Below, piece after piece: positions 3,230 to 23,184 of a stretch of 42,174 nt of DNA. Origin of the DNA: Rhodothermales bacterium (GTDB taxonomy: Bacteria; Bacteroidota; Rhodothermia; Rhodothermales; UBA10348); contig JAURNP010000207.1 of NCBI GenBank assembly GCA_030830105.1, positions 1 to 42,174 on the forward strand. Direction: 5' to 3'. The notes below the pieces were generated by a model. That model was not told where the DNA came from. It ran no database searches and saw nothing but the letters and a program-made list of their open reading frames with translations. Every line of letters begins with the position of its first letter. Position 1 is the first letter of the stretch. The position numbers and the translations under genes were made by a program.

Positions 3230-6200
3230 ATGCCTGAAACCAACCGGGAATCCTTGTTCGGAGACGAAACCACGATGGACGTGACACGCGGTCTTACGAT
3301 TGACCGTGTTTTTTCTGCGGAAGGAGAGGATCCTTTCGATTCTGTGAAATGGGAGACGCGCGATGCGTCCATCAAGAACCACACCGGCGAAGCCATTTTT
3401 GAGCAGACCAATGTGGAATTCCCAGAAGGCTGGAGTCAGCTGGCTACCAATGTGGTGACCAGTAAGTACTTCTACGGCGAACTGGCCAATAATGGCATCC
3501 ACCCCAGCGAAGGCGGCAGGGAGAATAGCCTGCGTCAGCTCATCCATCGTGTCACGCGTACAATTGCCGATTGGGGTACGAAACAGAATTATTTTGCGAC
3601 CAAACAAGATGGTGAGACCTTCTACCAGGAGCTGACCTGGCTGTGCGTCAATCAGTACGGTGCCTTCAATAGCCCGGTTTGGTTCAACGTGGGTCTGAAT
3701 CAGCAATACGGGGTCACAGACTCCGGCGGTAAGACCATTTTCGGATGGGATCGCAAGAAAAAGAAGGTCGTCCCGGTCGACCCGTACATCCGCCCGCAGG
3801 CTTCCGCTTGCTTCATCATCTCCGTCGAAGACTCGATCGATGATATCTGGCAGCTCATGGGCGAGTCGGCCCGCCTGTTCAAATTCGGATCCGGAGTAGG
3901 TGCGGACTGGTCCAAACTGCGCTCCAGCCGTGAGAAGCTCTCTGGTGGCGGCGTACCGTCTGGCCCAGTCTCCTTCATGAAGGTCCAAGACGCCACGGGT
4001 GGTACCATCAAGTCAGGTGGTAAGACGCGCCGCGCTGCCATCATGCAGACGCTCAAGAGCTGGCACCCGGACATCAAGGAGTTTGTCGAGGCCAAGCAGG
4101 AAGAAGAGAAGAAAGCTTGGGCCCTCATCGAAGAAGGGTACGATGGGAGCTTCAACGGCCCAGCTTACGGCTCAGTAGCCTTTCAGAATGTCAACCAATC
4201 CGTTCGCGTCGACGACGCCCTCATGGCAGCCGCCGACGATAACGCGGCTTATGGCCTGCGCGCTGTCAAGTCGGGTGACGTGATAGAAGAAGTGGATGCC
4301 GCAGGCATCCTGGAGAAAATTGCTGAAGGAACCCACGTTTGTGGCGATCCGGGTGTCCAGTACGAGGACACTATCCAGCGCTGGCATACGTGCAAAAACT
4401 CGGATGCCATCAACTCGAGCAATCCTTGCTCCGAGTACATGTTCTTGGATGATTCGGCCTGTAACCTGGCTTCGCTGAACCTGCGTAAGTATCAGAATGC
4501 AGATGGCACGTTTGATGTGGCTCGCTTTCGCGCTGCAGCCCGCATCTACATCACGGCCATGGAAATCCTGGTTGATAACGCAGGCTATCCGTCTGCACCG
4601 GTTGCCGAAAACTCCCATCTCTACCGTCCGCTCGGTCTCGGCTTTGCCAACCTCGGTGCGCTCCTGATGTCGATGGGCCTGCCATACGACAGCGACGAAG
4701 GACGCGCCGTGGCTGGTGCCGTCATGGCCATCGAGCACTGCGAAGCGTACGCACGCTCGGCTGAGATCGCCGGAAACCCGAAAATCGGCACGTTCGACGG
4801 CTTCGAAGCCAACCGCGAGCCCTTCCTCGAAGTCATGCGCATGCATCGCGACGCCGTGGATACAATCCACACGTCGTGCCCCGAGTATTTGCTGGAAGCG
4901 GCCCGCGAATCGGCAGATAAAATGGTGGCCCTCGGCGAAGTTCACGGCTATCGCAATGCGCAGTCGACGGTACTGGCACCAACTGGCACCATCGGTTTCA
5001 TGATGGATTGCGACACGACAGGTGTTGAGCCAGACATTGCCCTTGTCAAGTACAAGCTGCTGGCGGGCAAAGGAGATGGTATGCTCAAAATCGTCAACCG
5101 TACGGTCCCCGAAGCGCTCGAGCGCCTGGGCTACAAGAAGAAAGCCGTAAAAGCGATCATCAAGCACATCGACGAGGAAGACACGATCGAGGGCGCACCT
5201 GGTCTCAAGGATGAGCACCTGCCGGTGTTTGACTGCGCTTTCAAGCCATTCAACGGCGAGCGTTCGATTCACCACATGGGTCACATCAAGATGATGGCAG
5301 CCACGCAGCCATTCATCTCGGGCGCCATTTCCAAGACGGTCAACATGCCGGAGAGCACGACGGTCGAGGAAATTTCCGATGCCTACATGCAAGGCTGGAA
5401 GCTCGGCCTCAAGGCAGTCGCCATCTATCGCGAAAACTCCAAGCGTAGTCAGCCACTGGCCACGTCCAAAGGCGGTAACACGAAAGGAGCTTCTACGGAA
5501 GTTGCCTCCGGTGACGGACAGGCAACGACCGTCGAGCCCGAAATCAAAGTCGTTGAGCGCGTCGTGCACAAGTCGGTTCGTCACCGTCTCCCGGACGAGC
5601 GCCCGTCGCTGACGCACAAATTCTCGATTGCCGGACACGAAGGTTACCTGCACATTGGCATGTATCCAGATACAAAGATGCCGGGCGAGATCTTCATCAC
5701 GATGGCCAAGGAAGGGTCGACCATTTCCGGCCTGATGGATGCCTTCGCCACATCAATCTCGATCGCACTTCAGTACAACGTGCCGCTCGAAGACCTGTGC
5801 AACAAGTTCAGCCACATGCGCTTCGAGCCGAACGGGTTCACCAACAACCGGCAGATTCCGATCGCCAAGTCCATCATGGACTACATCTTCCGCTACCTCT
5901 CCATGCGCTTCCTCTCCCAGCCCGAGGCTGAAGTGAAAGCAAAGGAGACGGCCTTGGACGAACCGGCATCGGATCTCGAGCAGATCGACATGTTCACAGC
6001 TGAGCCGACCGAATCCTCGGTCGACCCACTCGTGGGTGACACGGTTGAGGACTTCCTTGGACGCTCCAGCGCTGAAGCTTCAGCTGTGGCCACGGCCACG
6101 GCGACAGCTACGGAAACCGAAACCACCTTTGCCAACCAGGAGGATGCACCTCCTTGTTCAAATTGCGGCAGCATCACGGTGCGCAGCGGAGCATGTTACT

Positions 6201-6238
6201 CATGCCCGAACTGCGGTAACACCAGCGGATGTGGATGA
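3230..6238 (+). CDS. nrdJ: Vitamin B12-dependent (class II) ribonucleotide reductase with C-terminal TSCPD-like region and Zn ribbon
   Basis: FNSPVWFN, PQASACFI, GGKTRRAA, SNPCSEY (thiyl Cys), APTGTI and ISKTVNMP motifs; terminal CSNC...CPNCG. No N-terminal ATP cone is visible. Confidence 0.95.
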   Translation: MPETNRESLFGDETTMDVTRGLTIDRVFSAEGEDPFDSVKWETRDASIKNHTGEAIFEQTNVEFPEGWSQLATNVVTSKYFYGELANNGIHPSEGGRENSLRQLIHRVTRTIADWGTKQNYFATKQDGETFYQELTWLCVNQYGAFNSPVWFNVGLNQQYGVTDSGGKTIFGWDRKKKKVVPVDPYIRPQASACFIISVEDSIDDIWQLMGESARLFKFGSGVGADWSKLRSSREKLSGGGVPSGPVSFMKVQDATGGTIKSGGKTRRAAIMQTLKSWHPDIKEFVEAKQEEEKKAWALIEEGYDGSFNGPAYGSVAFQNVNQSVRVDDALMAAADDNAAYGLRAVKSGDVIEEVDAAGILEKIAEGTHVCGDPGVQYEDTIQRWHTCKNSDAINSSNPCSEYMFLDDSACNLASLNLRKYQNADGTFDVARFRAAARIYITAMEILVDNAGYPSAPVAENSHLYRPLGLGFANLGALLMSMGLPYDSDEGRAVAGAVMAIEHCEAYARSAEIAGNPKIGTFDGFEANREPFLEVMRMHRDAVDTIHTSCPEYLLEAARESADKMVALGEVHGYRNAQSTVLAPTGTIGFMMDCDTTGVEPDIALVKYKLLAGKGDGMLKIVNRTVPEALERLGYKKKAVKAIIKHIDEEDTIEGAPGLKDEHLPVFDCAFKPFNGERSIHHMGHIKMMAATQPFISGAISKTVNMPESTTVEEISDAYMQGWKLGLKAVAIYRENSKRSQPLATSKGGNTKGASTEVASGDGQATTVEPEIKVVERVVHKSVRHRLPDERPSLTHKFSIAGHEGYLHIGMYPDTKMPGEIFITMAKEGSTISGLMDAFATSISIALQYNVPLEDLCNKFSHMRFEPNGFTNNRQIPIAKSIMDYIFRYLSMRFLSQPEAEVKAKETALDEPASDLEQIDMFTAEPTESSVDPLVGDTVEDFLGRSSAEASAVATATATATETETTFANQEDAPPCSNCGSITVRSGACYSCPNCGNTSGCG

Positions 6239-6330
6239 CCGCACTGACATCCCGCCCTGCGCACGGGAGCGTAGGTCGGGATAATTCACCCCAGGGTGTG
6301 GGCATCAGTACCACGCCCGGTTAACGGGGA

Positions 6331-6370
6331 GCGCCCGGCGGTTGGTGGGACCGCCGGGCGCCTTTTTTTT
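6331..6370 (+). terminator. Intrinsic terminator of nrdJ
   Basis: Stem GCGCCCGGCGGT (6331-6342) / ACCGCCGGGCGC (6350-6361) followed by a run of 8 T. Confidence 0.9.
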
Positions 6371-6610
6371 GTAGGAGCCATCAGCTCTCATGCCTGTGAC
6401 GTCACGAAGGCGACGGCTAATGACCCCCAAAAAAAAGCCGTCGCTCGCGGGGGCAGGTACAAGTTCACTCCGGAGAACTCGATCCAGCCACCCGCAAACG
6501 CCGGCACTCTTAGAAACGTAATCCCCAGGGTATTTCACGACATCGACTCCGATTCGTAACCTGATCCTCGGCTGAACAACACATGAGAGCTTCAAATCTC
6601 CAGGTACTCT

Positions 6611-7372
6611 ATGGCTCGCTTCGAAAACAAAATTGTCCTTATTACCGGCGCCAGCTCCGGCATAGGTGAAGCGGCCGCGTATGCGTTTGGTCGCGAAGGC
6701 GCCAAGGTATTTCTCGTGGCGCGGCGTGCAGATCGTGGTGAAGCTGTCGCCCAGCGGATCCGCGAAGAAGGCGGAACGGCTCTCTTTTACCAGGCCGACA
6801 TGGCCGACCGTGCGCAGATCGGTGCTATGGTGGCCGCCTGCGTAGAGAAATTCGGTGGTCTCGATGTCGCCTTCAACAACGCGGGTATAGATGGAGCCTT
6901 CAACGTCAACATCCCCGATCACCCGGAGGATGTCTGGGACGATGTTTTGACCATCAACCTGACCGGTGTGTGGTACTGCATGCGCCACCAGATTCCGGCA
7001 ATGCTGGAGAGAGGTGGAGGATCCATTGTCAACATGGCATCGATGGCCGGTGTGAAAGGATTCCCGGGCAGCTCAAGCTATGCGGCCAGCAAGTTCGGTG
7101 TGGTTGGCATCACCAAGGCCGCCGCACTCGAATATGCCGATCAGGGCATCCGAGTAAACGCAGTCTGTCCGGCCGTCATTCGCTCCGAGATGGCTGATCG
7201 CGTCTTCGGCACAGACGAGGCAGACAACGAAGCACAGGCAGCTTCTTGGCACCCAATTGGTCGCATCGGAGAGCCCGAGGAAGTAGCCAACGTTGTTTTG
7301 TGGCTCGCCTCAGATGAAGCCTCCTTTGTCACGGCGGAAACCATCCAGATTGACGGTGGCCTCGGAGCCTAG
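6611..7372 (+). CDS. Classical SDR oxidoreductase (glucose-1-dehydrogenase/FabG-like)
   Basis: TGASSGIG, NNAG, YAASK catalytic motif, IRVNAVCP. Confidence 0.9.
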   Translation: MARFENKIVLITGASSGIGEAAAYAFGREGAKVFLVARRADRGEAVAQRIREEGGTALFYQADMADRAQIGAMVAACVEKFGGLDVAFNNAGIDGAFNVNIPDHPEDVWDDVLTINLTGVWYCMRHQIPAMLERGGGSIVNMASMAGVKGFPGSSSYAASKFGVVGITKAAALEYADQGIRVNAVCPAVIRSEMADRVFGTDEADNEAQAASWHPIGRIGEPEEVANVVLWLASDEASFVTAETIQIDGGLGA

Positions 7373-7579
7373 TCGTGAACGCTGGCGCCTGAATGGCACA
7401 TGAGCGTCATTAAAGACGCGAGAAAAAAGTCTGTGATGGCCCTCGCACGGCGTAATTACGGGCAGCGTATGCCTGAATAATTGACACCAATTCGGTTTAA
7501 ACATAACAAAATGCCCCCTCGACTCGTTAGGGGGAGTGAACAGCCAGAAACATCATAGCCGCCCTCGGTTGTAAACCCC

Positions 7580-8539
7580 ATGGGAAGGTTTTTCAAAGAG
7601 TACGGACTGATCGCAGTCCTTACAGCGGTTGCACTCAGCGGATATTTCCTGATCGGTGACCGACCTGGAGACATCATGGAGTACACCCTGGATATGATGG
7701 GCACACGCCTCATCGAATTGGCTCAGGGCGACGATGAGAAGCAGGAAATTGCCCGTCAGTTTGCTGCATTTTCCGAGCGAGTGGAACGTGATGAAGTTGC
7801 GCCTGAAGTGATCGAGTCGGTAGCAGCGAACGTATTGAATCTGCGTGCTCGAGGAGCAGTGATCACGCCGGAAGAAGCAGAGCTGATGCTTTATCCCGAG
7901 GCTGTGTCGACATTACCGATTCCTGCTGATTCTTCGGCAACAGTCCCGGCGCTACCGGCATACTCCATCGCCTCGGCGGGATCCGCTGTTCACGTTGACA
8001 TGAAGGAGCTGGGAGACCGCATCACCTACATGTTCGAAATCGCGGATGCTGTGGGACAACACGACGACTCTGGCCGTACGCATGTTCGTTTTGCTCGAGA
8101 TACAGACGGGATACACGTAATCATGGATCCGCGTGTGGAATCGTTCTTCGAGACATCGTCCGCGGGTGACCTCTACTCAGAAATGAGCGAAAAGGAATGG
8201 GTACGGTGGGAAGTGGATTTAGCGGAACAGCAGGAGCGGGACGCAAAGCGCCTGGAGCGCCAAGCCGAACGTATTACAGTACTTGAAAACTCCCAAGAAG
8301 CTGTCCTTGAAGTATCCCAGGTCCAACGACTGAAAGCCCTGAAGCGTGTTCAAAAACTGGCCATGATGGGGGCCATGACCGACTTGGACACGTTGGTGCT
8401 TTATCAGGAAATGGAGTCGCTCCTTGAGGGCCTTACGTTCGAGCTCCAGACGAGGATGGACACGGAAGAGACCGATGTTGCCGCACAGCCTGGATCCGTC
8501 AGCATCGTCATCCAGTCCGACTCGACAACCAACCGGTAG
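7580..8539 (+). CDS. Hypothetical protein with N-terminal membrane anchor
   Basis: 319-aa ORF with hydrophobic YGLIAVLTAVALSGYFLI and an acidic, helical/coiled-coil-like remainder. No recognisable motif. Confidence 0.75.
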   Translation: MGRFFKEYGLIAVLTAVALSGYFLIGDRPGDIMEYTLDMMGTRLIELAQGDDEKQEIARQFAAFSERVERDEVAPEVIESVAANVLNLRARGAVITPEEAELMLYPEAVSTLPIPADSSATVPALPAYSIASAGSAVHVDMKELGDRITYMFEIADAVGQHDDSGRTHVRFARDTDGIHVIMDPRVESFFETSSAGDLYSEMSEKEWVRWEVDLAEQQERDAKRLERQAERITVLENSQEAVLEVSQVQRLKALKRVQKLAMMGAMTDLDTLVLYQEMESLLEGLTFELQTRMDTEETDVAAQPGSVSIVIQSDSTTNR

Positions 8540-8659
8540 TAGTCCTCCCACCAGCATGGGACACCCCCTCCGAGAGGCGGTCAGGAACGCACGCGGGGAT
8601 TGCACCGTTCATGGGCCGCTAATCCCACTCCAGTCCCCACCCCTCTCTCCCGATACCCC

Positions 8660-9091
8660 ATGAAAGTTGCCAAGCGATTCCGCTGGGAAGGTGCCCATCG
8701 ACTTCCCTGGCACGAAGGACGTTGCCGTGACCTGCACGGCCACTCCTACGAAATGTTTGTTGAAGTGGAAGGAGAGCCGGACGCGCAGGGCATGCTCATC
8801 GACTTCAAGCATCTGAAACGGGCGCTCGCGCCAGTGGTCGACGAGTGGGATCATGCAACGGTTGTCGCCGAAAATGACACCAAGCTCCTGAACATCATGA
8901 AGGAGAGCGGCTGGCGTCATGTGGTCATTCCCTACGATACGACGGCCGAAAACATCTGCGTCTTCTTTGCCGATCACCTCGTCAATGAGCATCGCGATCT
9001 ACTCGAGGCACGCAAGATCCACACAGTCCGCGTCCGCATTGCGGAAACGGAGACGTGCTACGCAGAAGTCGCGCGTTCGCTGAGCGACTGA
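8660..9091 (+). CDS. queD: 6-carboxy-5,6,7,8-tetrahydropterin synthase (QueD/PTPS family)
   Basis: AHRL...CRDLHGHSY (CxxxHGH), IDFK, WDH, TTAEN, ETET. Start re-assigned to ATG 8660 (MKVAKRF). Confidence 0.88.
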   Translation: MKVAKRFRWEGAHRLPWHEGRCRDLHGHSYEMFVEVEGEPDAQGMLIDFKHLKRALAPVVDEWDHATVVAENDTKLLNIMKESGWRHVVIPYDTTAENICVFFADHLVNEHRDLLEARKIHTVRVRIAETETCYAEVARSLSD

Positions 9092-9160
9092 TCCCTGAAG
9101 ATATCCCTAACCAAGCAGCTAATTGGTGTAAGCGTGGTCACACCCTGTTGGGCGTTTGCA

Positions 9161-10570
9161 TCACGGGAAAATACCCATCTCAGCGTAGGTGACAGCTACC
9201 TTGTTGATGGCGTTGATGAACGCGGCAGTTCGCATATCCGTCCCTTTGGAAAGCGCGATTTCCCGGGTCTCCTGATAGGCCGTTGACATCGTTTCTTCCA
9301 GACCTGAATTGACCAGGTCCACCTCGTCAGCTCCGGCGGTCAATCGCATCATCTCCGCTGGCGTGATTTCTACCTTCATGGCACCGGCAAGAGCTTTGAC
9401 AATGCGTTCGTTGGATGACTGCTCAAATCGCTTGCTCATCCGTCCAAAGCGGACGTGCGACAGGTTCTTGAGCCACTCGAAGTAGGATACCGTCACGCCT
9501 CCCGCATTCAGGAATACATCAGGCAAGAGGAGCACGCCCTTTTCGAGAAGCATGGCGTCTGCATCTGCCGTAACGGGGCCATTGGCTGCTTCTGCAACGA
9601 TTTTAGCCTGGATACGCGGTGCGTTTTCTTTGGTAATCACCCCTTCCAGCGCAGCCGGGATCAGGATATCACACGGCAGCTCCAATGCTCTCGCTGTTTC
9701 AGGGATATCGGTGGCACCCGGGAAACCGAGAATGGAGCCGGATTCCTTGCGATGCGCCATTACGGATTCCAGGTCGAGACCATCAGGATTGTGGATGGCT
9801 CCCTCGTATTCGGCGAGGCCGACGAGGACGGCGCCACCCTCCTGCATGTACTTGGCGGCATGATAGCCCACGTTTCCCAGGCCCTGTACTACTACCGTCT
9901 TACCTTCGAGACCGGGCTTCAGCCCTCTATTGGCCATATCGGTTTCAAATGAGACACTTTCCCGGATACCATAGAAAACACCGCGACCGGTGGCTTCTGT
10001 TCGTCCCCGAACACCGCCCTGTGCGATGGGCTTGCCCGTGACACAAGCTTGTGCGGTAAGTGGATCGTCAGAAAGTGTTCGATAGGTGTCAACAATCCAA
10101 GCCATTTCCCGTGCGCCAGAGCCATAATCAGGCGCCGGTACGTCCGTGCCAGGACCGATGAAGTTTTTTGCGAAGAGCTCATAGGTATAGCGTCGCGTGA
10201 TCCTCTCGAGTTCAGCGTCCGAGAAATTGTTGCGATCGATCTGGATACCGCCCTTGCCGCCACCAAAAGGGACGTTTACGATCGCACACTTGTAGGTCAT
10301 GAGCGTGGCCAGCGCCGCAACCTCATCCTCGTTCACGGCCATACTGAATCGGATCCCGCCTTTTGTCGGCAGTTTGTGATGACTGTGCTCGGCGCGCCAA
10401 GCCTTGATGACTTCGATGGATCCGTCGTCCTTTACGAGGGGAAATTCCATCTTGTATACAGAGTTGCAAATGGAAATCTGCTTGAGAAGCCCTGGCGTGT
10501 GATCCGTCAATGCGGCCGCCTTGGCGTACATGCGATCAACCTGCTGCAGAAAGCTGGGATGGGAAGCCAT
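9161..10570 (-). CDS. gdhA: Glutamate dehydrogenase (Glu/Leu/Phe/Val dehydrogenase family)
   Basis: [52 protein letters not shown]. Confidence 0.92.
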
Positions 10571-16133: not shown

Positions 16134-17198
16134 TTAGACTTTTCGTCGAGCCAACAGACCCCGAGAAGCCAGTAGCTCGGCGTTGAGGATCGCCCCTCCC
16201 GCAGCGCCTCGGATCGTGTTATGGCTCAAGACCACAAATCTGGCATCGAAAACCGGACATGAACGAACGCGACCAACCGAAACGGTCATGCCCGCGCCGC
16301 GATGTACATCGCGGCGCGGCTGCGGCGCGGCGTCGGCGTCATCTACCATGAGACACGTTTCTGGAGCCGACGGCAAACCAGCAACTTCATCGGGCGTCGT
16401 GAAGCTTCGCAGGGCTTGCTCCACTTGGTCAGCCGTCGGAGAGCCTGCCAGTTTGACCGAGACACATTCCATGTGGCCTTCGATAACAGGCACGCGGTTG
16501 CACTGGGCGGATACAGGAAAAGAGAGGGGCGTGACCGACGAACTGGCACCTTCCCCTTGGCGCGGTGCGAGGATGCGTAGCGGCTCGGTCTCCAGCTTGT
16601 CTTCTTCACCGCCGATGTATGGCACCACGTTGGCTACGGCATCCAAGGACGCCACGCCGGGGTAGCCAGCTCCGGACAGGGCCTGCATGGTCGTGACATG
16701 GACCGCCTCGATCCCGAACACATCTTGCAACGGCTTGAGAGCTATGGTCATTCCAACTGTGGCACAATTCGGATTCGTGACGATGAACCCCGTTTCCGAA
16801 TACGTCTGGCGCTGAACCAGGTCAACATGCTCCGGATTGATCTCCGGGATGAGCAGCGGGACATCATCATCCATGCGATGATTCTTCGCATTGGAAATGA
16901 CGGGATAGCCCGCAGCGGCAAACGCCTTTTCAACCGTCCCTGCTACGGAGCTGTCAAGCCCTGAGAAAACCAGATCACAATCCAACCTAGGCTCGCAGAG
17001 CTGTACTTCCAGGCCTGCCACACTTTCCGGCATACGAGTCGGCTCGATCCAGTGGGCTGCATCCCGATAGGATTTGCCAGCTGAACGCTCTGAAGCGGCA
17101 ACTGCTGTGATGGTAAACCACGGATGATTCTCCAGCAGTCGCACGAATTTCTGTCCTACGGCGCCCGTTGCGCCAAGAATACCAACGTTGAGTTTCAT
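16134..17198 (-). CDS. asd: Aspartate-semialdehyde dehydrogenase (archaeal/fungal-like branch)
   Basis: ILGATGAVGQ, TNPNC (catalytic Cys), QALSGAG, RVPVIEGH, HNTIRGAAG. Start re-assigned to ATG 17198. Confidence 0.94.
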   Translation of the reverse strand: MKLNVGILGATGAVGQKFVRLLENHPWFTITAVAASERSAGKSYRDAAHWIEPTRMPESVAGLEVQLCEPRLDCDLVFSGLDSSVAGTVEKAFAAAGYPVISNAKNHRMDDDVPLLIPEINPEHVDLVQRQTYSETGFIVTNPNCATVGMTIALKPLQDVFGIEAVHVTTMQALSGAGYPGVASLDAVANVVPYIGGEEDKLETEPLRILAPRQGEGASSSVTPLSFPVSAQCNRVPVIEGHMECVSVKLAGSPTADQVEQALRSFTTPDEVAGLPSAPETCLMVDDADAAPQPRRDVHRGAGMTVSVGRVRSCPVFDARFVVLSHNTIRGAAGGAILNAELLASRGLLARRKV

Positions 17199-17272
17199 GA
17201 GAGTCGAGTTCAATTCAATGCAGGAGTGCCTCGAAACAACGAGTAATACCCAAGGCACACAAGGGCCAATAA

Positions 17273-18256
17273 CTACATCGCCGCGTTGGATCGATCCATC
17301 AATTCGCGCGCATCCTTCTCAACCCGCTTGGGAAGATGAGCCGGAAGAATGAGCGTCCCATCACCCTGAGGCTGTCGGGTAGACCGTACATGCACCGGAA
17401 TGCACGCATGTAGCACAGGCTCGAAAGCATGCGCATGCATACCAAGCTGATTGGCCTCGTTCCATGTCGTTGCATCTTCCAGAAGCAGGTACAGGAATCT
17501 TCCGGCCTGCTCGTTCTTGCGCGGATCGGCCGTGTAGAGCCCGTCCACATCGGTCCACCGATCGAATTTGGATGCGCCAACTGCCTCGGCAATGAGGGAA
17601 GCCGAATAATCACTTCCCCCGCGACCCAATGTCACGACGCGACCGTCGTCATCAGCACCCAGGAATCCGGTGATCACGGGGAGTTTGTCAGCTGGGAGAT
17701 GGTGGAACCACCGCTCGGCCTGAGCACGTGTCTGATTGCGGTCTACTACCCAGGATCCAGATGCGCTTTTAACGACATGGATCAACTTACGTGCGTCTAC
17801 CCACTCTGCATTGAGGCCGTGCTGCTGCAAGAGCAATGCAACGAGCGGAGCCGACATCCACTCGCCGCTGGCCCAGATGGCATGCGAACGTAGCGCACTG
17901 GGCCCGCGACGAACGACGTCGCGCAGGTTTTCAATTCGGTCCGAAAGTCTGTTCAAGTACTCCGCGTGCCGATCGTGATCCAGGACTTCTCCTGACAATG
18001 CGAGGTGGCGACGGGCGAGCTTCCGCATGAGCACCTGTTGCCGCTTCGGCTCGGACTCCTTTTCCAGGGCGTGTAGTAAGTCGGTTACACCCGACAGAGC
18101 TGAAACCACCAGTAATGGACGCGCCATCTTGGACTCCGCCGCCACGATACCCACCAGGCGTCCGAGCGCTTCTGCCGATCCGACAGAGGTCCCCCCGAAT
18201 TTGAGCACCTTGACGAGGTGGTGCCCTCCCGCTTCCTGTATGGGGTCAGTGGACAT
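17273..18256 (-). CDS. Aspartate kinase, catalytic domain only (327 aa; no ACT or homoserine dehydrogenase domain)
   Basis: KFGGTSV, VVSALSGVTD, GE..SA, TLGRGGSDYSA, WTDVDGLYTADP, GTLI followed by a short tail. Start at ATG 18256 overlaps the SDR stop. Confidence 0.85.
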   Translation of the reverse strand: MSTDPIQEAGGHHLVKVLKFGGTSVGSAEALGRLVGIVAAESKMARPLLVVSALSGVTDLLHALEKESEPKRQQVLMRKLARRHLALSGEVLDHDRHAEYLNRLSDRIENLRDVVRRGPSALRSHAIWASGEWMSAPLVALLLQQHGLNAEWVDARKLIHVVKSASGSWVVDRNQTRAQAERWFHHLPADKLPVITGFLGADDDGRVVTLGRGGSDYSASLIAEAVGASKFDRWTDVDGLYTADPRKNEQAGRFLYLLLEDATTWNEANQLGMHAHAFEPVLHACIPVHVRSTRQPQGDGTLILPAHLPKRVEKDARELMDRSNAAM

Positions 18257-19004
18257 AACTGGCAGCGTTGATATCGATGGAACACCCGGTGGCGTGATCG
18301 GACAGGCCGCTGGCAAGCAGAACGATAGTCGGCGCCACGTCAGAGGGTTCTGTGAGTCGATCCAAAGCAATTCCGCCCAGAACGAAGTCCTCTCCGTAGG
18401 CATCAATGGCATCCTGTGCCATCGCCGTGCGGACGAATCCAGGGGCGATAGTGAACGCTTTGATGTTTTGTTTACCGTAGGCTCGTGCCACCGAACGGGC
18501 CAGGGAGACCATGGCTCCCTTCGAGGCCGCATAGGCCAGATAGTCTTCAGAGTCACCACGGAAGGCTGCGCGGGAGGCCATGTAGATGATGCGTCCGCCA
18601 CCGTTTTCGATAAAGTGCGGAATGGCTGCGCGCGTCAGGATGCCTGACGCGCGCGTATTCACGTCCATGGTCTTATCCCATTGCTCCACCCACTCGTCCA
18701 AGTCGCGCTCAACGGGAGAGTGAAGGGCAATTCCAGCGTTGTTGATCACGCAATCCACGCGCCCGTAGGCACCGACCACATCCCGGAAAAGGCGGTCAGC
18801 CTCCGAGGCGTCCGAGAGATCGGCCCGGAAAGCCTCGCTCTTGCCACCAATCTCCTTGCACAAGGCCACGGCCTCGTCGGAGGACGATGAGTAATGCACG
18901 GCGACGGTAGCTCCGGATGCAGCCAGCTGTTTGGCGATTTCCCGTCCAATGCCGCGGCTGGCGCCGGTTACCAGAATGATCTGTCCTGTCAGGTCGATAT
19001 GCAT
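18246..19004 (-). CDS. SDR oxidoreductase embedded in the methionine operon
   Basis: TGASRGIG, NNAG, S...YAASK. Overlaps metX by 16 bp and the aspartokinase by 11 bp. Confidence 0.9.
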   Translation of the reverse strand: MHIDLTGQIILVTGASRGIGREIAKQLAASGATVAVHYSSSSDEAVALCKEIGGKSEAFRADLSDASEADRLFRDVVGAYGRVDCVINNAGIALHSPVERDLDEWVEQWDKTMDVNTRASGILTRAAIPHFIENGGGRIIYMASRAAFRGDSEDYLAYAASKGAMVSLARSVARAYGKQNIKAFTIAPGFVRTAMAQDAIDAYGEDFVLGGIALDRLTEPSDVAPTIVLLASGLSDHATGCSIDINAASYVH

Positions 19005-20143
19005 GTCTTCAACGCGTGATGTCGTGGATTGGCTGGGGCGTCGAGGCGCTCAGACCAGTCACGGATAAGGACGTCGAGCCGGTCTGCATCCAGCAAGAAT
19101 CCATCGTGTCCGTGTGGCGAAGGCAGCGTAGCTACTTCCGCGTTAGTCAGGTGAGCAGCCAGCGCCTCGATATCAGCCAAGGGGAAAAGGATATCAGAGG
19201 GTATACCCACGAGCAGCACAGGTTGCTCAAGTCCAGATCTTTTTTTTCCGGATTCAGATGGGCGGGCAAACCGATCCGGATCGGAAGACAGTTTCTCCAG
19301 TCCCAGATCATGCGAATTCGCCATGTGTGTCAAACACACATAGCTGTTCGCGTCAAAGCGCTGGACCAGTTTACGGCCCTGGTGATGCAGGTAGGACTGC
19401 ACGGAATAAGAGGGACGGGGTCCGGTCTGATCAGAGGCCTGAACCTGGGGGGTGACAGCCACCGCTGCGGCAGGCTCCCGCCCAAATCGCTGCTGGAAAG
19501 AGTCGGAGTTGCGGTAGGACAGCATGGCCATCATGCGGGCTGCGGCCAATCCGGCCGCAGGCGGGCGATCTGGAGCATAGAACCCATCTTCCCACGCAGG
19601 GTCGGCATAGATCGCTTGCCGTTGGGACTCGCTCCAGGCAATACACCAGGCCGAGTGGGCGGCTGAAGTGGCCACGGCAACCACGCGCCGAACCGAGGGG
19701 TCCCATGCTGCCCACTGCAGTGCGAGCATACCGCCGAGTGATCCTCCAATGACCATATCTACGCGATCGACGCCCAGATGCGCGCACAGCTGTCGCTGTG
19801 CGCGCACATTGTCCCTCACGGTCACATCTGGAAAGTTGGCCTGCCATGGCTTTCCAGTAGCCGGATTGATGGACGTGGGTCCCGTGCTTCCGTAGCAGGA
19901 TCCCAAAAGGTTGGCGCAAATGACATAATGCTGCTCGGGATCGACCGCTTTGCCGGGTCCAAACAACCCGGACCACCACGTGGTCACGTCGGCATCGCCC
20001 GTGAGCGAATGAAACACCACCACAGCATTGTCCCGTCGCTCATTGAGCCGACCCCAGGTCCGGTAGGCCAGACGTGTCGCGGGCAGGATCGCACCGGATT
20101 CCAGCGCAAAGTTGCCGAGCTCAAAACAATCGGACTCAGCCAT
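18989..20143 (-). CDS. metX: Homoserine O-acyltransferase (MetX family)
   Basis: HSLTGD, WW..LFGPG, GGSLGGM nucleophile elbow, ARM.AM.SYR, FDANSY, SDILFP, HGHDGFL. Acetyl versus succinyl specificity cannot be read here. Confidence 0.93.
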   Translation of the reverse strand: MAESDCFELGNFALESGAILPATRLAYRTWGRLNERRDNAVVVFHSLTGDADVTTWWSGLFGPGKAVDPEQHYVICANLLGSCYGSTGPTSINPATGKPWQANFPDVTVRDNVRAQRQLCAHLGVDRVDMVIGGSLGGMLALQWAAWDPSVRRVVAVATSAAHSAWCIAWSESQRQAIYADPAWEDGFYAPDRPPAAGLAAARMMAMLSYRNSDSFQQRFGREPAAAVAVTPQVQASDQTGPRPSYSVQSYLHHQGRKLVQRFDANSYVCLTHMANSHDLGLEKLSSDPDRFARPSESGKKRSGLEQPVLLVGIPSDILFPLADIEALAAHLTNAEVATLPSPHGHDGFLLDADRLDVLIRDWSERLDAPANPRHHALKTCIST

Positions 20144-21356
20144 GGACTGTCACCCCATTCGTTGAGGCCCTCGGGACATGATGTCCATTTGTCCGCGGCG
20201 TCCCTCCTTCAGGGCGAATCGCCACGTCGAAGGCCTGCTCAAGATCAGCAATGAGATCATCGACGAATTCGATGCCTACGGACAGGCGAATTACCTCGTC
20301 CGTGATTCCAGCCGCTTCACGTGCCTCCGGCCGCATGGAAGCATGACTCATGGTAGCCGGCTGCTCGATCAGGGACTCGACACCTCCCAGGGATTCGGCC
20401 AGCGTGAACACGCGTGTGGCGGACAGAAGTCGCGATATCGGAAATCCTTCGCGAACCCGGAAAGAGAGCATACCCCCGAATCCAGCCTGCTGACGCGCGG
20501 CCGTTTCGTGCCCCGTGTGACTCGACAAACCAGGATAGTACACCTCTTCAACCGCGTGATGCGTAGCCAGGTAGCGCGCTACTGCATCGGCGTTCTCCTG
20601 GTGCTGCCGCAGTCGGATCGGAAGCGTCTTGAGGCCACGCAAAATGAGCCAGCTGTCAAACGGTACAGCTGTGGCGCCCTGGGCATTTGCGGCAAAGTGA
20701 ACAGCCTCGTGCCCTTCCTTGGTAGCTGCGATGACGGCTCCGCCCACCACGTCCGAATGGCCATTGAGGTACTTGGTCGTTGAGTGCACGACATAGTCGG
20801 CTCCGAAATCGATTGGACGCTGCAGCAGGGGTGTCAGGAAGGTGTTATCAACAATAAAATCGATACCCGCATCCTTGGCGACGCTGCCCACTTGATACAG
20901 ATCCGTCACGCGCAGTAGCGGGTTCGAAGGCGTCTCCACCCAAAGAGCCCGAGTCTGCGGAGTGATGTGCAGCGCCAGCTCAAGCGGATCGGTAAGGTCT
21001 ACAAAGGACACGTTGATCTTGCCTTGACGTTGCCACCAAGACAAGAGCCGCTCTGTACCGCCGTAACAGTCATGCGAACAGATGATGTGGCTTCCTGCGG
21101 GATACAGGGAAAGCACAGACGCCACGGCGGCCATACCACTGCCGACGCATACAGCGCCGGCACCTCCTTCCAGGTCTGCCAGAGTTTGCTCGAGAGCCGT
21201 CCGGGTGGGATTCCCACTGCGGCTGTAATCGTACTCTGGTTTCGTTCCGTCCGCATTGAAGCGGAAAATGGCCGACTGATAGATGGGAAGCGATACGCTG
21301 TTGAATGTCGAATCGGTTGACTGTCCGGCCAGCGTAAGTCGGGTCTGCGGATGCAT
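20136..21356 (-). CDS. metB: PLP-dependent trans-sulfuration enzyme, probably cystathionine gamma-synthase
   Basis: YSRSGNPTR, SGMAA, ETPSNP, VDNTF, HSTTKYLNGHSD (PLP Lys), AESLGGVESL. First gene behind the SAM riboswitch. Confidence 0.8.
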   Translation of the reverse strand: MHPQTRLTLAGQSTDSTFNSVSLPIYQSAIFRFNADGTKPEYDYSRSGNPTRTALEQTLADLEGGAGAVCVGSGMAAVASVLSLYPAGSHIICSHDCYGGTERLLSWWQRQGKINVSFVDLTDPLELALHITPQTRALWVETPSNPLLRVTDLYQVGSVAKDAGIDFIVDNTFLTPLLQRPIDFGADYVVHSTTKYLNGHSDVVGGAVIAATKEGHEAVHFAANAQGATAVPFDSWLILRGLKTLPIRLRQHQENADAVARYLATHHAVEEVYYPGLSSHTGHETAARQQAGFGGMLSFRVREGFPISRLLSATRVFTLAESLGGVESLIEQPATMSHASMRPEAREAAGITDEVIRLSVGIEFVDDLIADLEQAFDVAIRPEGGTPRTNGHHVPRASTNGVTVHG

Positions 21357-21531
21357 GAGAGTCTGCTGCGAGGCAGCTGTTGGATGGATGATGAAGATCC
21401 TTCCATCCTGAACCGCTGATGGCTCGCCTGCCGCAGTGACCGATTCCCCGATAAGCAGTGCTGGAGAACGGGTTCGTCACTGTTGGGGTGACCGGCTGCA
21501 TGCCGCTTCGTTCTCCATCTCACCCAGATAC

Positions 21532-21567
21532 AAAAAAGCCCTCGCAGGCTCAGTGGCTCTGGGAGGG
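21532..21567 (-). terminator. Riboswitch expression-platform terminator
   Basis: Minus strand CCCTCCCAGAGC...GCCTGCGAGGG imperfect hairpin followed by CTTTTTT, just downstream of the SAM aptamer. Confidence 0.75.
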
Positions 21568-21593
21568 ACACAACGAAGCGTGGCTTCGTTTTT

Positions 21594-21703
21594 CCTTCCC
21601 ATCTGCCTCGTATCGAGCAGGATTTAGCACCTTTGGTCCCTTATCGGGCTCCCGGTTGCTACGACGTCAACGGGCCTGTCCCTCGGTCGTTCTTGATGGA
21701 AGT
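21594..21703 (-). ncRNA. SAM-I (S-box) riboswitch
   Basis: Minus strand reads CTTCC-ATCAAGA-ACGACC-GAGGGACAGGCCC-GTTGACGTCGT-AGCAACC...GGTGCTAAATCC...GATGGGAAG. The SAM-I core motifs and P1 are present, upstream of met genes. Confidence 0.95.
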
Positions 21704-23184
21704 GGGGCGAGTATACGGCAATGGACGGTTGTGTTGCAAGCCCATTCGCAATCAGGACAATCGACTTGACAGCGGATTAACCTCGCCTGCCAGTCGCGGG
21801 TTGCCTGATCGCTCCCGGTAATGGAGGAGTTGGTCCAGGCTGATCCTGAGTGCAGCCAGACACCCGCATGGTAACTGGCCAGAATTGTCCCATCCCGGGT
21901 GACATCCAGATCCCGGATGGCTGGCATGCCCGGTGGCCCGAGTGCAGCCCATCCATCTTGAGGATCCAGTCGCCATACGCCTGCTCTGGTGGCCGCCAGA
22001 AGGCTGCCGTCGGCATCCTGTGCCACATCGGTCACAGATTGTATGAGTGGAAGGTCCAGAAAGGCGCGTTCCCAGGTGCTACCCAGGTTTCCAGAGAGAA
22101 AGAGGCCTCCAGTCGTCCCGGCAACAACACGTCCATCGGTAAGGGTGCGCACCGTTGTAATCGAGCTTCGAAGGCCATTGTTGGAGGCGTGCCAGGTGAT
22201 GCCGCTGTCTGATGATCGCAGAACTCCCTGTCCGTGCGTACCGATGAGCAACGTGGAACCCAAGAATAGAATGGACTGGACATTCGAGCCTGCTGCCCGG
22301 CGGGACAGCCACGTTCCTCCCTCGTCGCCCGTCGCGTAGAGATTGCGGAAGCCGCCCGCGAACAGTGTTCCGTCAGGTGCCACCTTGATCATGGGGACCG
22401 TGAGCGGATCTGTGTCAGGCTGGATGCATGTCCACAGGCTGCCGTTGCCTCGACTTCGATAGAGAGCACATCCTCCCTGCCCCGGCTGAGCGCCAGCGAA
22501 AAGATGCCCAGATTCGTTCGAGGTGATGGAACGCACGTCATATTCCTGCAATCCAAACGAAGAGAATTCCCAGGTCAATCCTTGATCGACCGACCGAAAA
22601 ATTCCCAAGTAGTTAGCAGCAAAGGCGAAGTCTTCGTTCGCCGTCAACGATTGAACGTTGACCGAATAACCTTCCAAGGAGCGAGCGGACCAACTCGATC
22701 CCCCGTCTTCACTGCGGTAGACGAAACTATTGGCTCCGACCAGGAAGACTCCGGGTTCAGGTTCTAGGAGGCTGGTTGTATAAATGTTTTCCAGGCCGGC
22801 CGGAGTCCACCCCGCATCTTGCGCGCCCCGGCTGAAAAGACCATGACCGAATGTTGCCACTCGAACGACTCCGGACGCATCTACATGGATATCACGTACA
22901 TCGAACAAGGTCAATCCATCACTGTCAGAGGTCCACGTGTAGCCATTGTCCAAGCTTTTGTGAACACCGTTCGATGTTGCCGCCAAAATGGATCCGTCGG
23001 CCAGCCGTTCCAGATCCCAAATAGTCGTTCCGCCATAGGGACCATCGACTGGCGCCCACCAATTGGTCTGCGCACTGGCGTCGAGGACAACCAAAAACGC
23101 GAAGAAACCCACCATCAAACCAAGGAATACTCGATTCCAGGCTCTGGCGGCCACTAACGTGATATGTCGGAAAGGCATAGGCAT
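21667..23184 (-). pseudogene. Secreted BNR/Asp-box beta-propeller protein, apparently 3'-truncated near 21795
   Basis: Signal peptide ending ASAQ and many S.D.G.TW repeats. The last ~42 codons are non-repeat, Cys-rich read-through across the met promoter and into the riboswitch. Confidence 0.65.
21710..21739 (-). promoter_or_regulatory. Sigma70-like promoter of the SAM riboswitch/met operon
   Basis: TTGCAA (-35, 21734-21739), 18-nt spacer, TATACT (-10, 21710-21715), ending about 7 nt before riboswitch P1. Confidence 0.7.

Follow-up and report, generated by a model that had tools for sequence, protein, structure and literature searches.

A short-chain dehydrogenase gene in a SAM riboswitch operon as a candidate homoserine dehydrogenase of Rhodothermales without a recognizable canonical enzyme

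Homoserine dehydrogenase (Hom; EC 1.1.1.3) catalyzes a central step common to methionine, threonine, and isoleucine synthesis and has been proposed as a target for antifungals and herbicides. Within the reach of our literature searches, every homoserine dehydrogenase described to date belongs to one family, characterized by NAD_binding_3 and Homoserine_dh domains and found either as a stand-alone protein or as part of ThrA/MetL fusions. Full-text searches retrieved no homoserine dehydrogenase of the short-chain dehydrogenase/reductase (SDR) type and none designated as alternative or 'missing'. SDRs are able to reduce aldehydes of small acids, and Escherichia coli YdfG (a serine/3-hydroxy-acid dehydrogenase and malonic semialdehyde reductase) provides a precedent for a classical SDR that reduces a small carboxylated, amino-acid-like aldehyde. 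Here, we have analyzed a contig of 42,174 nucleotides from a Rhodothermales bacterium (NCBI GenBank assembly GCA_030830105.1, contig JAURNP010000207.1), referred to as a whole as the window, in which an S-adenosylmethionine (SAM)-I riboswitch is followed by five genes encoding a MetB-like enzyme, MetX, an SDR, aspartokinase (Ask), and Asd. Both the pathway and the riboswitch operon are known; what is proposed to be new is a non-homologous enzyme for one step. Based on genomic context, the SDR is the best candidate to fill a putative homoserine gap in a clade of Rhodothermales.

In the first-pass annotation of the window, the riboswitch and the five genes were listed in this order with gene overlaps of 8, 16, and 11 bp, the kinase was described as devoid of a homoserine dehydrogenase domain, and every step of the pathway was considered to be encoded except Hom. 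All of these statements held. The elements are present in the given order on the minus strand, and the overlaps are exact from the open reading frame (ORF) coordinates (metB/metX, 8 bp; metX/SDR, 16 bp; SDR/ask, 11 bp). The aspartokinase, whose start agrees with database records, aligns with TIGR00657 over positions 5-287 of 442 (201 bits, cut-off 208.7) and ends at residue 327, leaving the C-terminal third of the model unmatched, with neither an ACT match nor a Homoserine_dh domain. It is the sole aspartokinase among the three AA_kinase genes in the genome. The whole-genome search for Homoserine_dh was empty, and the gap holds in 21 genomes, as described below.

The pathway gap is real, clade-wide, and robust. 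The genome that contains the window (G000) was assembled from a metagenome and comprises 2.52 Mb in 221 contigs with 91% completeness; no match to Homoserine_dh (PF00742) was found across it, and the same search was positive in all 14 control genomes. The only NAD_binding_3 match in this genome (contig C221) was considered as a cryptic Hom and rejected, as it is a GFO/IDH/MocA oxidoreductase. PF00742 was likewise detected in none of 21 genomes (G000 included) of the genera g1, g3, g5, g6, g8, and g9, among which are assemblies of only two contigs (G004, 96% complete) and three contigs (G011) as well as one that is 99% complete (G008), a pattern that would not be expected from random loss from assemblies. 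Hom was present in 22 of 41 relatives, in only 7 of 24 genomes of the window's taxonomic family, and in 275 of the 301 genomes of the class with completeness of at least 90%; the 279 of these that fall outside the window's taxonomic family include 10 without a Hom match, which is approximately the rate that incompleteness would produce.

The consumers of homoserine have been kept in these organisms. The thrC gene scored above its cut-off in all five hom-less genomes tested, and thrB and thrC are adjacent in G000 (contig C198), G004, G008, and G011; the pair is placed behind an FBPase gene, which is also the case in a hom-positive relative whose ThrA is encoded elsewhere. MetF (methylenetetrahydrofolate reductase, MTHFR) was found in five of five hom-less genomes tested, by which the idea that the SDR replaces MetF was ruled out. 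Given that metX, MetF, and thrB-thrC are present, Hom is the only step missing. Regarding the other branch of the pathway, dapB (TIGR00036) was found in just one of five hom-less genomes, those without it including G000, G004, G008, and G023, and in 4 of 24 relatives belonging to the window's taxonomic family, with or without hom, two of these matches being above the cut-off. Since dapB was mostly not found, aspartate semialdehyde (the product of Ask and Asd) has no evident use besides homoserine in most hom-less genomes. These profile searches suggest that the window's taxonomic family may not use the diaminopimelate route to produce lysine and its cell wall. In other Rhodothermales families, dapB often adjoins thrA, and DapA-like genes fall just under their cut-off. 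The accessible text of the GapMind 2026 preprint (10.1101/2024.10.14.618325) names hisN, hisI, serB, and thrB as the principal gaps still left in 208 prototrophs; hom is not one of them, SDRs are not mentioned, and the supplements might list further gaps. Judged by that text, it is unusual for hom to be missing throughout a clade in which the consumers have been kept.

The distribution of the SDR gene within the operon follows the absence of Hom. It is located in the operon in 13 genomes (G000, G001, G003-G006, G008, G010, G011, G013, G014, G020, and G023), and Hom was found in none of the 13. A homologous riboswitch operon without the SDR, arranged as MetY/B-MetX-Ask-Asd or MetX-Ask-MetB, occurs in 10 hom-positive Rhodothermales and in G007; in hom-positive Rhodothermales, the SDR is encoded away from the met operon. 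A SAM riboswitch lies upstream of the homologous operon in 19 of the 20 related loci scanned, the sole miss being a locus (L006) that starts inside metB. Because the ACT-less kinase and the riboswitch also occur in operons without the SDR, both are ancestral and only the SDR is new. Most clade genomes have the form riboswitch-MetB-MetX-SDR-Ask-Asd, whereas metX has left the operon in G003 and G005 (riboswitch-MetB-SDR-Ask-Asd) and both metB and metX have left it in G010 (riboswitch-SDR-Ask-Asd), with a different metX elsewhere in G005 and metX on another contig in G010. The constant unit, SDR-Ask-Asd, would correspond to the three steps from aspartate to homoserine. Mean pairwise identities in eight species are 73% for MetB, 68% for the SDR, 66% for Asd, 63% for MetX, and 58% for Ask, and by this measure the SDR is under purifying selection like its operon neighbors.

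Additional loci were retrieved by several scans. All six loci from a scan with Ask as the single query came from the operon clade. Recurrence of the SDR beside ask in other phyla was looked for with 18 short aspartokinases in a shallow search with too-general patterns, in which the 80 matches listed were generic aspartokinases and 1 of them showed this arrangement, again from the same clade. A metagenome scan with 17 operon-clade SDRs yielded mostly unrelated SDRs among the 80 matches listed; a single match (L250) belonged to the clade, and its operon was the same. Among the matches listed in these shallow scans, there was thus no recurrence independent of the clade. Two of the related operons have unusual reading frames: in G005 (L007/L148, 4617-5799), metB is divided into two frames meeting near residue 106, either by a frameshift or by a sequencing error, the metX on the other contig of this genome being 46% identical; and in the hom-positive G031 (L159, 6974-8971, minus strand), MetX and a short aspartokinase share one 678-residue frame, which may be a fusion or the result of a missed stop codon.

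Comparison of gene neighborhoods indicates where the SDR gene came from. In Rhodothermales outside the clade, it is part of a conserved gene order, SufS-DUF2480-SDR, next to which RecG is encoded convergently, and no riboswitch was found at this ancestral site in nine loci. In G000, the corresponding slot between DUF2480 and RecG (L169, contig C101) is occupied by a 389-residue ORF with a C-terminal DUF2914 (3503-4672, plus strand), and each clade genome has one member of the SDR family at E ≤ 1e-40. As there is a single family member and the ancestral slot has been refilled, the SDR was moved rather than duplicated. In a tree of 69 family members and two outgroup sequences, the SDRs encoded in the operon group together as a single clade (17 rows; Shimodaira-Hasegawa-like approximate likelihood ratio test, SH-aLRT, 87) with a core of 15 rows (SH-aLRT 98), and vertical descent within the taxonomic family was not rejected (approximately unbiased (AU) test, p = 0.65). 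A horizontal origin of the operon SDR is not claimed: the free tree nests it apart from the family's other SDRs, but the tree with the family constrained scores better in the same test.

In length, glycine motif, catalytic tetrad, and fold, the protein is a member of the classical SDRs. It is not a canonical Hom by membership, as the defining domain was searched for and is absent, with no match to either Homoserine_dh or NAD_binding_3 (PF03447). The glycine motif is T13-G14-A-S-R-G18-I19-G20, and both its T13-G14-x3-G18-I19-G20 pattern and the tetrad N116, S144, Y158, and K162 (YxxxK) are invariant in 69 homologues; the TGxxxGIG and S-Y-K elements recognized at first pass are thus intact, with N116 to be added. 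The two segments put forward there as signatures, SRAAFRGD (residues 144-151) and DINAASYVH (residues 244-252), are indeed present and turned out to be family-wide instead of specific to the operon SDR. Next to the catalytic Ser are the invariant residues R145, R149, and D151, which would be appropriate for binding a small zwitterionic acid as substrate. NADPH may be the preferred cofactor, the only hints being R17 in the glycine motif and the lack of an acidic residue after strand 2, interpreted by a cofactor rule from the SDR classification literature. None of the 25 best NCBIfam models attains its cut-off with this protein (FabG TIGR01830, 161 versus 297.75 bits), and its annotation in database records goes no further than 'SDR family NAD(P)-dependent oxidoreductase'. 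Its AlphaFold2 model (predicted local distance difference test score, pLDDT, 91.8) has a Rossmann-type alpha/beta fold and matches at least 500 SDR chains in Foldseek at E ≤ 0.001, with template modeling (TM) scores of up to 0.89. The designation 'new-fold' given to the candidate at first was overstated: the SDR differs from canonical Hom in family, and both have Rossmann-type dinucleotide binding.

With a probability of roughly 0.5, we consider the SDR to be a non-orthologous homoserine dehydrogenase that catalyzes the NAD(P)H-dependent reduction of L-aspartate-4-semialdehyde to L-homoserine, a substrate suggested by the gene context. In the proposed pathway, aspartate would be converted to aspartyl-phosphate by the ACT-less Ask and then to aspartate semialdehyde by Asd, from which the SDR, replacing the Hom half of the lost ThrA, would generate homoserine; MetX would then form O-acetylhomoserine and the MetB-like enzyme would carry out the sulfur step, while the same homoserine pool would feed the separately encoded ThrB-ThrC. 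The SAM-I riboswitch together with an intrinsic terminator would attenuate the whole unit, replacing allosteric control through the ACT domain. As to the history, the clade ancestor would have lost the ThrA (aspartokinase-Hom) fusion, and an already present single-copy housekeeping SDR moved from the SufS-DUF2480-SDR-RecG site to a position between metX and ask. The chances appear about even that we are dealing with a second, unrelated homoserine dehydrogenase class on a classical SDR scaffold, for which a housekeeping SDR widespread in Bacteroidota and neighboring phyla was recruited with its active site almost unchanged, and by which marine and estuarine Rhodothermales discard ThrA and obtain all homoserine for methionine and threonine from one riboswitch operon. 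With ThrA gone and the sole aspartokinase behind a SAM riboswitch, threonine synthesis would depend on a SAM-repressed operon, and control of the aspartate pathway by SAM solely at the RNA level would raise the question of how threonine is supplied at high SAM.

The features of the locus are listed in Table 1. The Rfam scan of the window revealed no element besides the SAM-I riboswitch. The hairpin and T-run in the leader probably constitute the expression platform and would act by transcription attenuation. The promoter candidate falls within the 3' end of an upstream 505-residue ORF (21667-23184, minus strand), which runs into the riboswitch aptamer and terminates within its first 36 nt; the promoter pattern has 4 sites versus 2.3 expected in shuffles, and a weak promoter-like site is also present inside ask (17635..17606). 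For the MetB-like protein, the best NCBIfam model (TIGR02080, 459 bits) is under its cut-off of 504, and its exact activity has been left unassigned. Asd matches both PF01118 and PF02774. Contigs of RNA libraries from three studies match parts of each of the five genes with identities of at least 95%, and one of 445 nt spans the SDR/ask junction; these contigs are weakly compatible with co-transcription and do not prove a single transcript. A higher depth of the leader compared with the coding regions was not used as evidence, since each contig has a single depth value, which does not allow regions to be ranked.

Table 1. Coordinates of the riboswitch operon and its leader elements in the window
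Feature	Position	Strand	Description
Sigma-70-like promoter candidate (TTGCAA-18-TATACT)	21739..21710	minus	Consensus match only; just upstream of the riboswitch
SAM-I riboswitch aptamer (S-box)	21702..21596	minus	RF00162, 72.5 bits versus gathering score 44.4, E 3.3e-15, full model 1-108
Terminator-like GC hairpin followed by TTTTTTG	21551..21536	minus	Pattern match, in the leader
metB-like pyridoxal phosphate (PLP) enzyme (cystathionine gamma-synthase/sulfhydrylase family)	21356..20136	minus	406 aa; PF01053 Cys_Met_Meta_PP, 480 bits
metX, homoserine O-acetyltransferase	20143..18989	minus	384 aa; NF001209, 374 bits versus cut-off 331
Classical SDR, candidate aspartate-semialdehyde reductase	19004..18246	minus	252 aa; PF00106 adh_short, 163 bits; candidate function from context
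ask, aspartokinase	18256..17273	minus	327 aa; AA_kinase domain only, PF00696, 138 bits
asd, asd_EA type	17198..16134	minus	354 aa; NF006416, 472 versus 232 bits; TIGR00978, 425 versus 301 bits

Several observations on the SDR family beyond the operon weigh against this assignment. Orthologues with 48-62% identity are found in Cytophagales, Saprospiraceae, WOR-3, Latescibacterota, Krumholzibacteria, and most Rhodothermales. Gene neighbors vary among 11 annotated loci with 50-62% identical SDRs, a Met, Ask, or Asd gene was detected within approximately 6 kb at none of 35 non-clade loci with at least 48% identity, and Hom is present in all five distant genomes with an SDR orthologue that were tested. 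Active-site motifs are equal throughout the family. Four positions (A22E, L/V122I, G164A, and F/Y199A) split operon and non-operon SDRs, of which E22 alone is universal in the former (17/17; A164 and A199 in 15/17), and the operon sequences carry no clear sign of a substrate change. Structure and sequence searches of solved structures returned only generic FabG-like or hydroxybutyrate-dehydrogenase-like SDRs, which offer no substrate clue. Furthermore, other hom-less genomes (G007, G019, G149, G253, and G265) keep the SDR at the ancestral site and retain thrC, and G149 carries MetY-MetX-Ask-Asd without the SDR. Finally, the clade members seen here are metagenome-assembled genomes only, and relocation of the SDR and loss of ThrA are each one event in one clade, giving their correlation an effective n of 1. 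The proposal made at first pass that hom was displaced by the SDR is therefore upheld in part: the gap is clade-wide, the consumers are kept, and the operon SDR occurs only in genomes without hom, but the family-wide pattern is mixed. Co-localization with met genes and anti-correlation with hom, suggested there as a check, apply to the operon clade and fail for the family, whose 48-62% identical members occur in hom-positive genomes; and the situation that had been named as a refutation, orthologues in unrelated contexts together with a canonical hom, was encountered in those lineages and not in the operon clade.

The hom-less genomes with an unmoved SDR fit three readings, namely a family-wide activity, another enzyme, or assembly gaps. 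Three of them, G149, G253 (f19), and G265 (f5), consist of 2-10 contigs, are 94-97% complete, and have thrC without a Homoserine_dh match; they may represent independent hom losses or assembly gaps. G046, which belongs to the same genus as the hom-less G007 and G019, is hom-positive. A 381-residue ORF upstream of thrB in G149 was considered as a novel Hom and rejected: it matches no Pfam family, its N-terminus resembles that of a lipoprotein, and a homologue is missing from G000. In the families f19 and f14, the unmoved SDR gene lies downstream of SufS-DUF2480 and beside a MetB-like PLP gene whose product is 42-44% identical to the window's MetB (L334 of G073, 5843-7759; L331 of G253, 7001-9531; L142 of G037, 7001-9777). 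This neighborhood suggests a loose, recurrent link of the SDR family to sulfur amino-acid genes in f19 and f14.

Different explanations should be weighed in light of these data. It is possible, albeit rather doubtful, that the SDR retains an unrelated housekeeping role common to its family, that its move was neutral or served some other purpose, and that homoserine is made by another, unrecognized reductase encoded elsewhere. Such a role agrees with the near-identical motifs and their single universal clade-specific substitution, with the orthologues that coexist with Hom in unrelated contexts, with the thrC-bearing, hom-less Rhodothermales whose SDR stays at the SufS-DUF2480 site (including G149, whose met operon lacks it), and with a relocation that occurred once. 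However, it would be costly to place a sole-copy gene under a SAM off-switch unless its product serves the pathway, and the SDR has remained coupled to ask-asd across three operon variants in species whose Ask proteins are only approximately 58% identical. No other candidate emerged either, as the sole NAD_binding_3 match is the GFO/IDH/MocA oxidoreductase and the ORF before thrB in G149 is lipoprotein-like and has no counterpart in G000.

The conserved active site can also be accommodated by a variant of our preferred explanation rather than its opposite, in which the whole SDR family is already a second homoserine dehydrogenase isozyme that is not inhibited by threonine, and the clade merely co-localized it after ThrA had become dispensable and was lost. 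The riboswitch operon of hom-positive Rhodothermales, which contains met-specific Ask and Asd and no met-specific Hom, would suit this scenario, as would the sporadic ThrA absences with thrC kept, all of which are in SDR-bearing lineages, and the fact that only two fragmented genomes (G021 and G030) of the 41 relatives have neither Hom nor SDR matches. Nevertheless, it seems improbable: three hom-positive relatives (G016, G027, and G040) lack the SDR, the SDR contexts outside Rhodothermales are unconnected with Asp, Met, or Thr genes, and the frequency of the sporadic absences (10/279) is about that expected from incomplete assemblies. We regard as very unlikely the remaining explanation, that there is no homoserine dehydrogenase at all, with homoserine being scavenged or Hom systematically lost from the assemblies, and that the SDR performs a SAM-repressed sulfur or methionine side reaction. 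The exclusively metagenome-assembled members and the loose sulfur amino-acid link in f19 and f14 are in its favor; yet Hom was found in 0 of 21 genomes, two- and three-contig assemblies included, and Ask and Asd have been kept although dapB is missing in four of five genomes, in which case aspartate semialdehyde would be useless. The side reaction, which had been offered at first pass as the alternative to displacement, is also disfavored by the SDR staying with ask-asd in operons that no longer contain metX or that have lost both metB and metX.

If the SDR is indeed a homoserine dehydrogenase, a non-homologous isofunctional enzyme would be added to a textbook pathway, false auxotrophy calls would be corrected in metabolic reconstructions of marine Rhodothermales, and the clade would offer a clean example of pathway repair by moving an existing gene into a riboswitch operon. 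If the activity were family-wide, many genomes would possess an unrecognized second route to homoserine.

Among known systems, the met operons of other Rhodothermales (11 loci) share the same riboswitch, ACT-less aspartokinase, asd_EA-type Asd, and MetX with the present locus; they are devoid of the SDR, and ThrA is encoded in 10 of these 11 genomes, whereas here the SDR is inserted between metX and ask and ThrA was not found. FabG-like and hydroxy-acid SDRs of solved structure (for instance 3sj7, 3osu, 4dqx, and 6zzp) are alike in fold and in the cofactor site (TM scores of 0.83-0.89 in Foldseek; E values of 1e-31 to 1e-40 in phmmer), but their identity to the window's SDR is just 26-34%, and the family of the latter is distinguished by an SRAAFRGD loop that follows the catalytic Ser. 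YdfG, likened here by its general description only, differs in that the substrate proposed for the window's SDR is a 4-semialdehyde. Compared to canonical Hom, whose reaction it is proposed to catalyze, the SDR is unrelated in sequence, being a single-domain protein of 252 residues with the tetrad N-S-Y-K, and it is the ThrA fusion that is found in sister lineages; what makes it resemble canonical Hom is that its gene shares an operon with ask, asd, and metX, from which it would feed both the methionine and the threonine branches.

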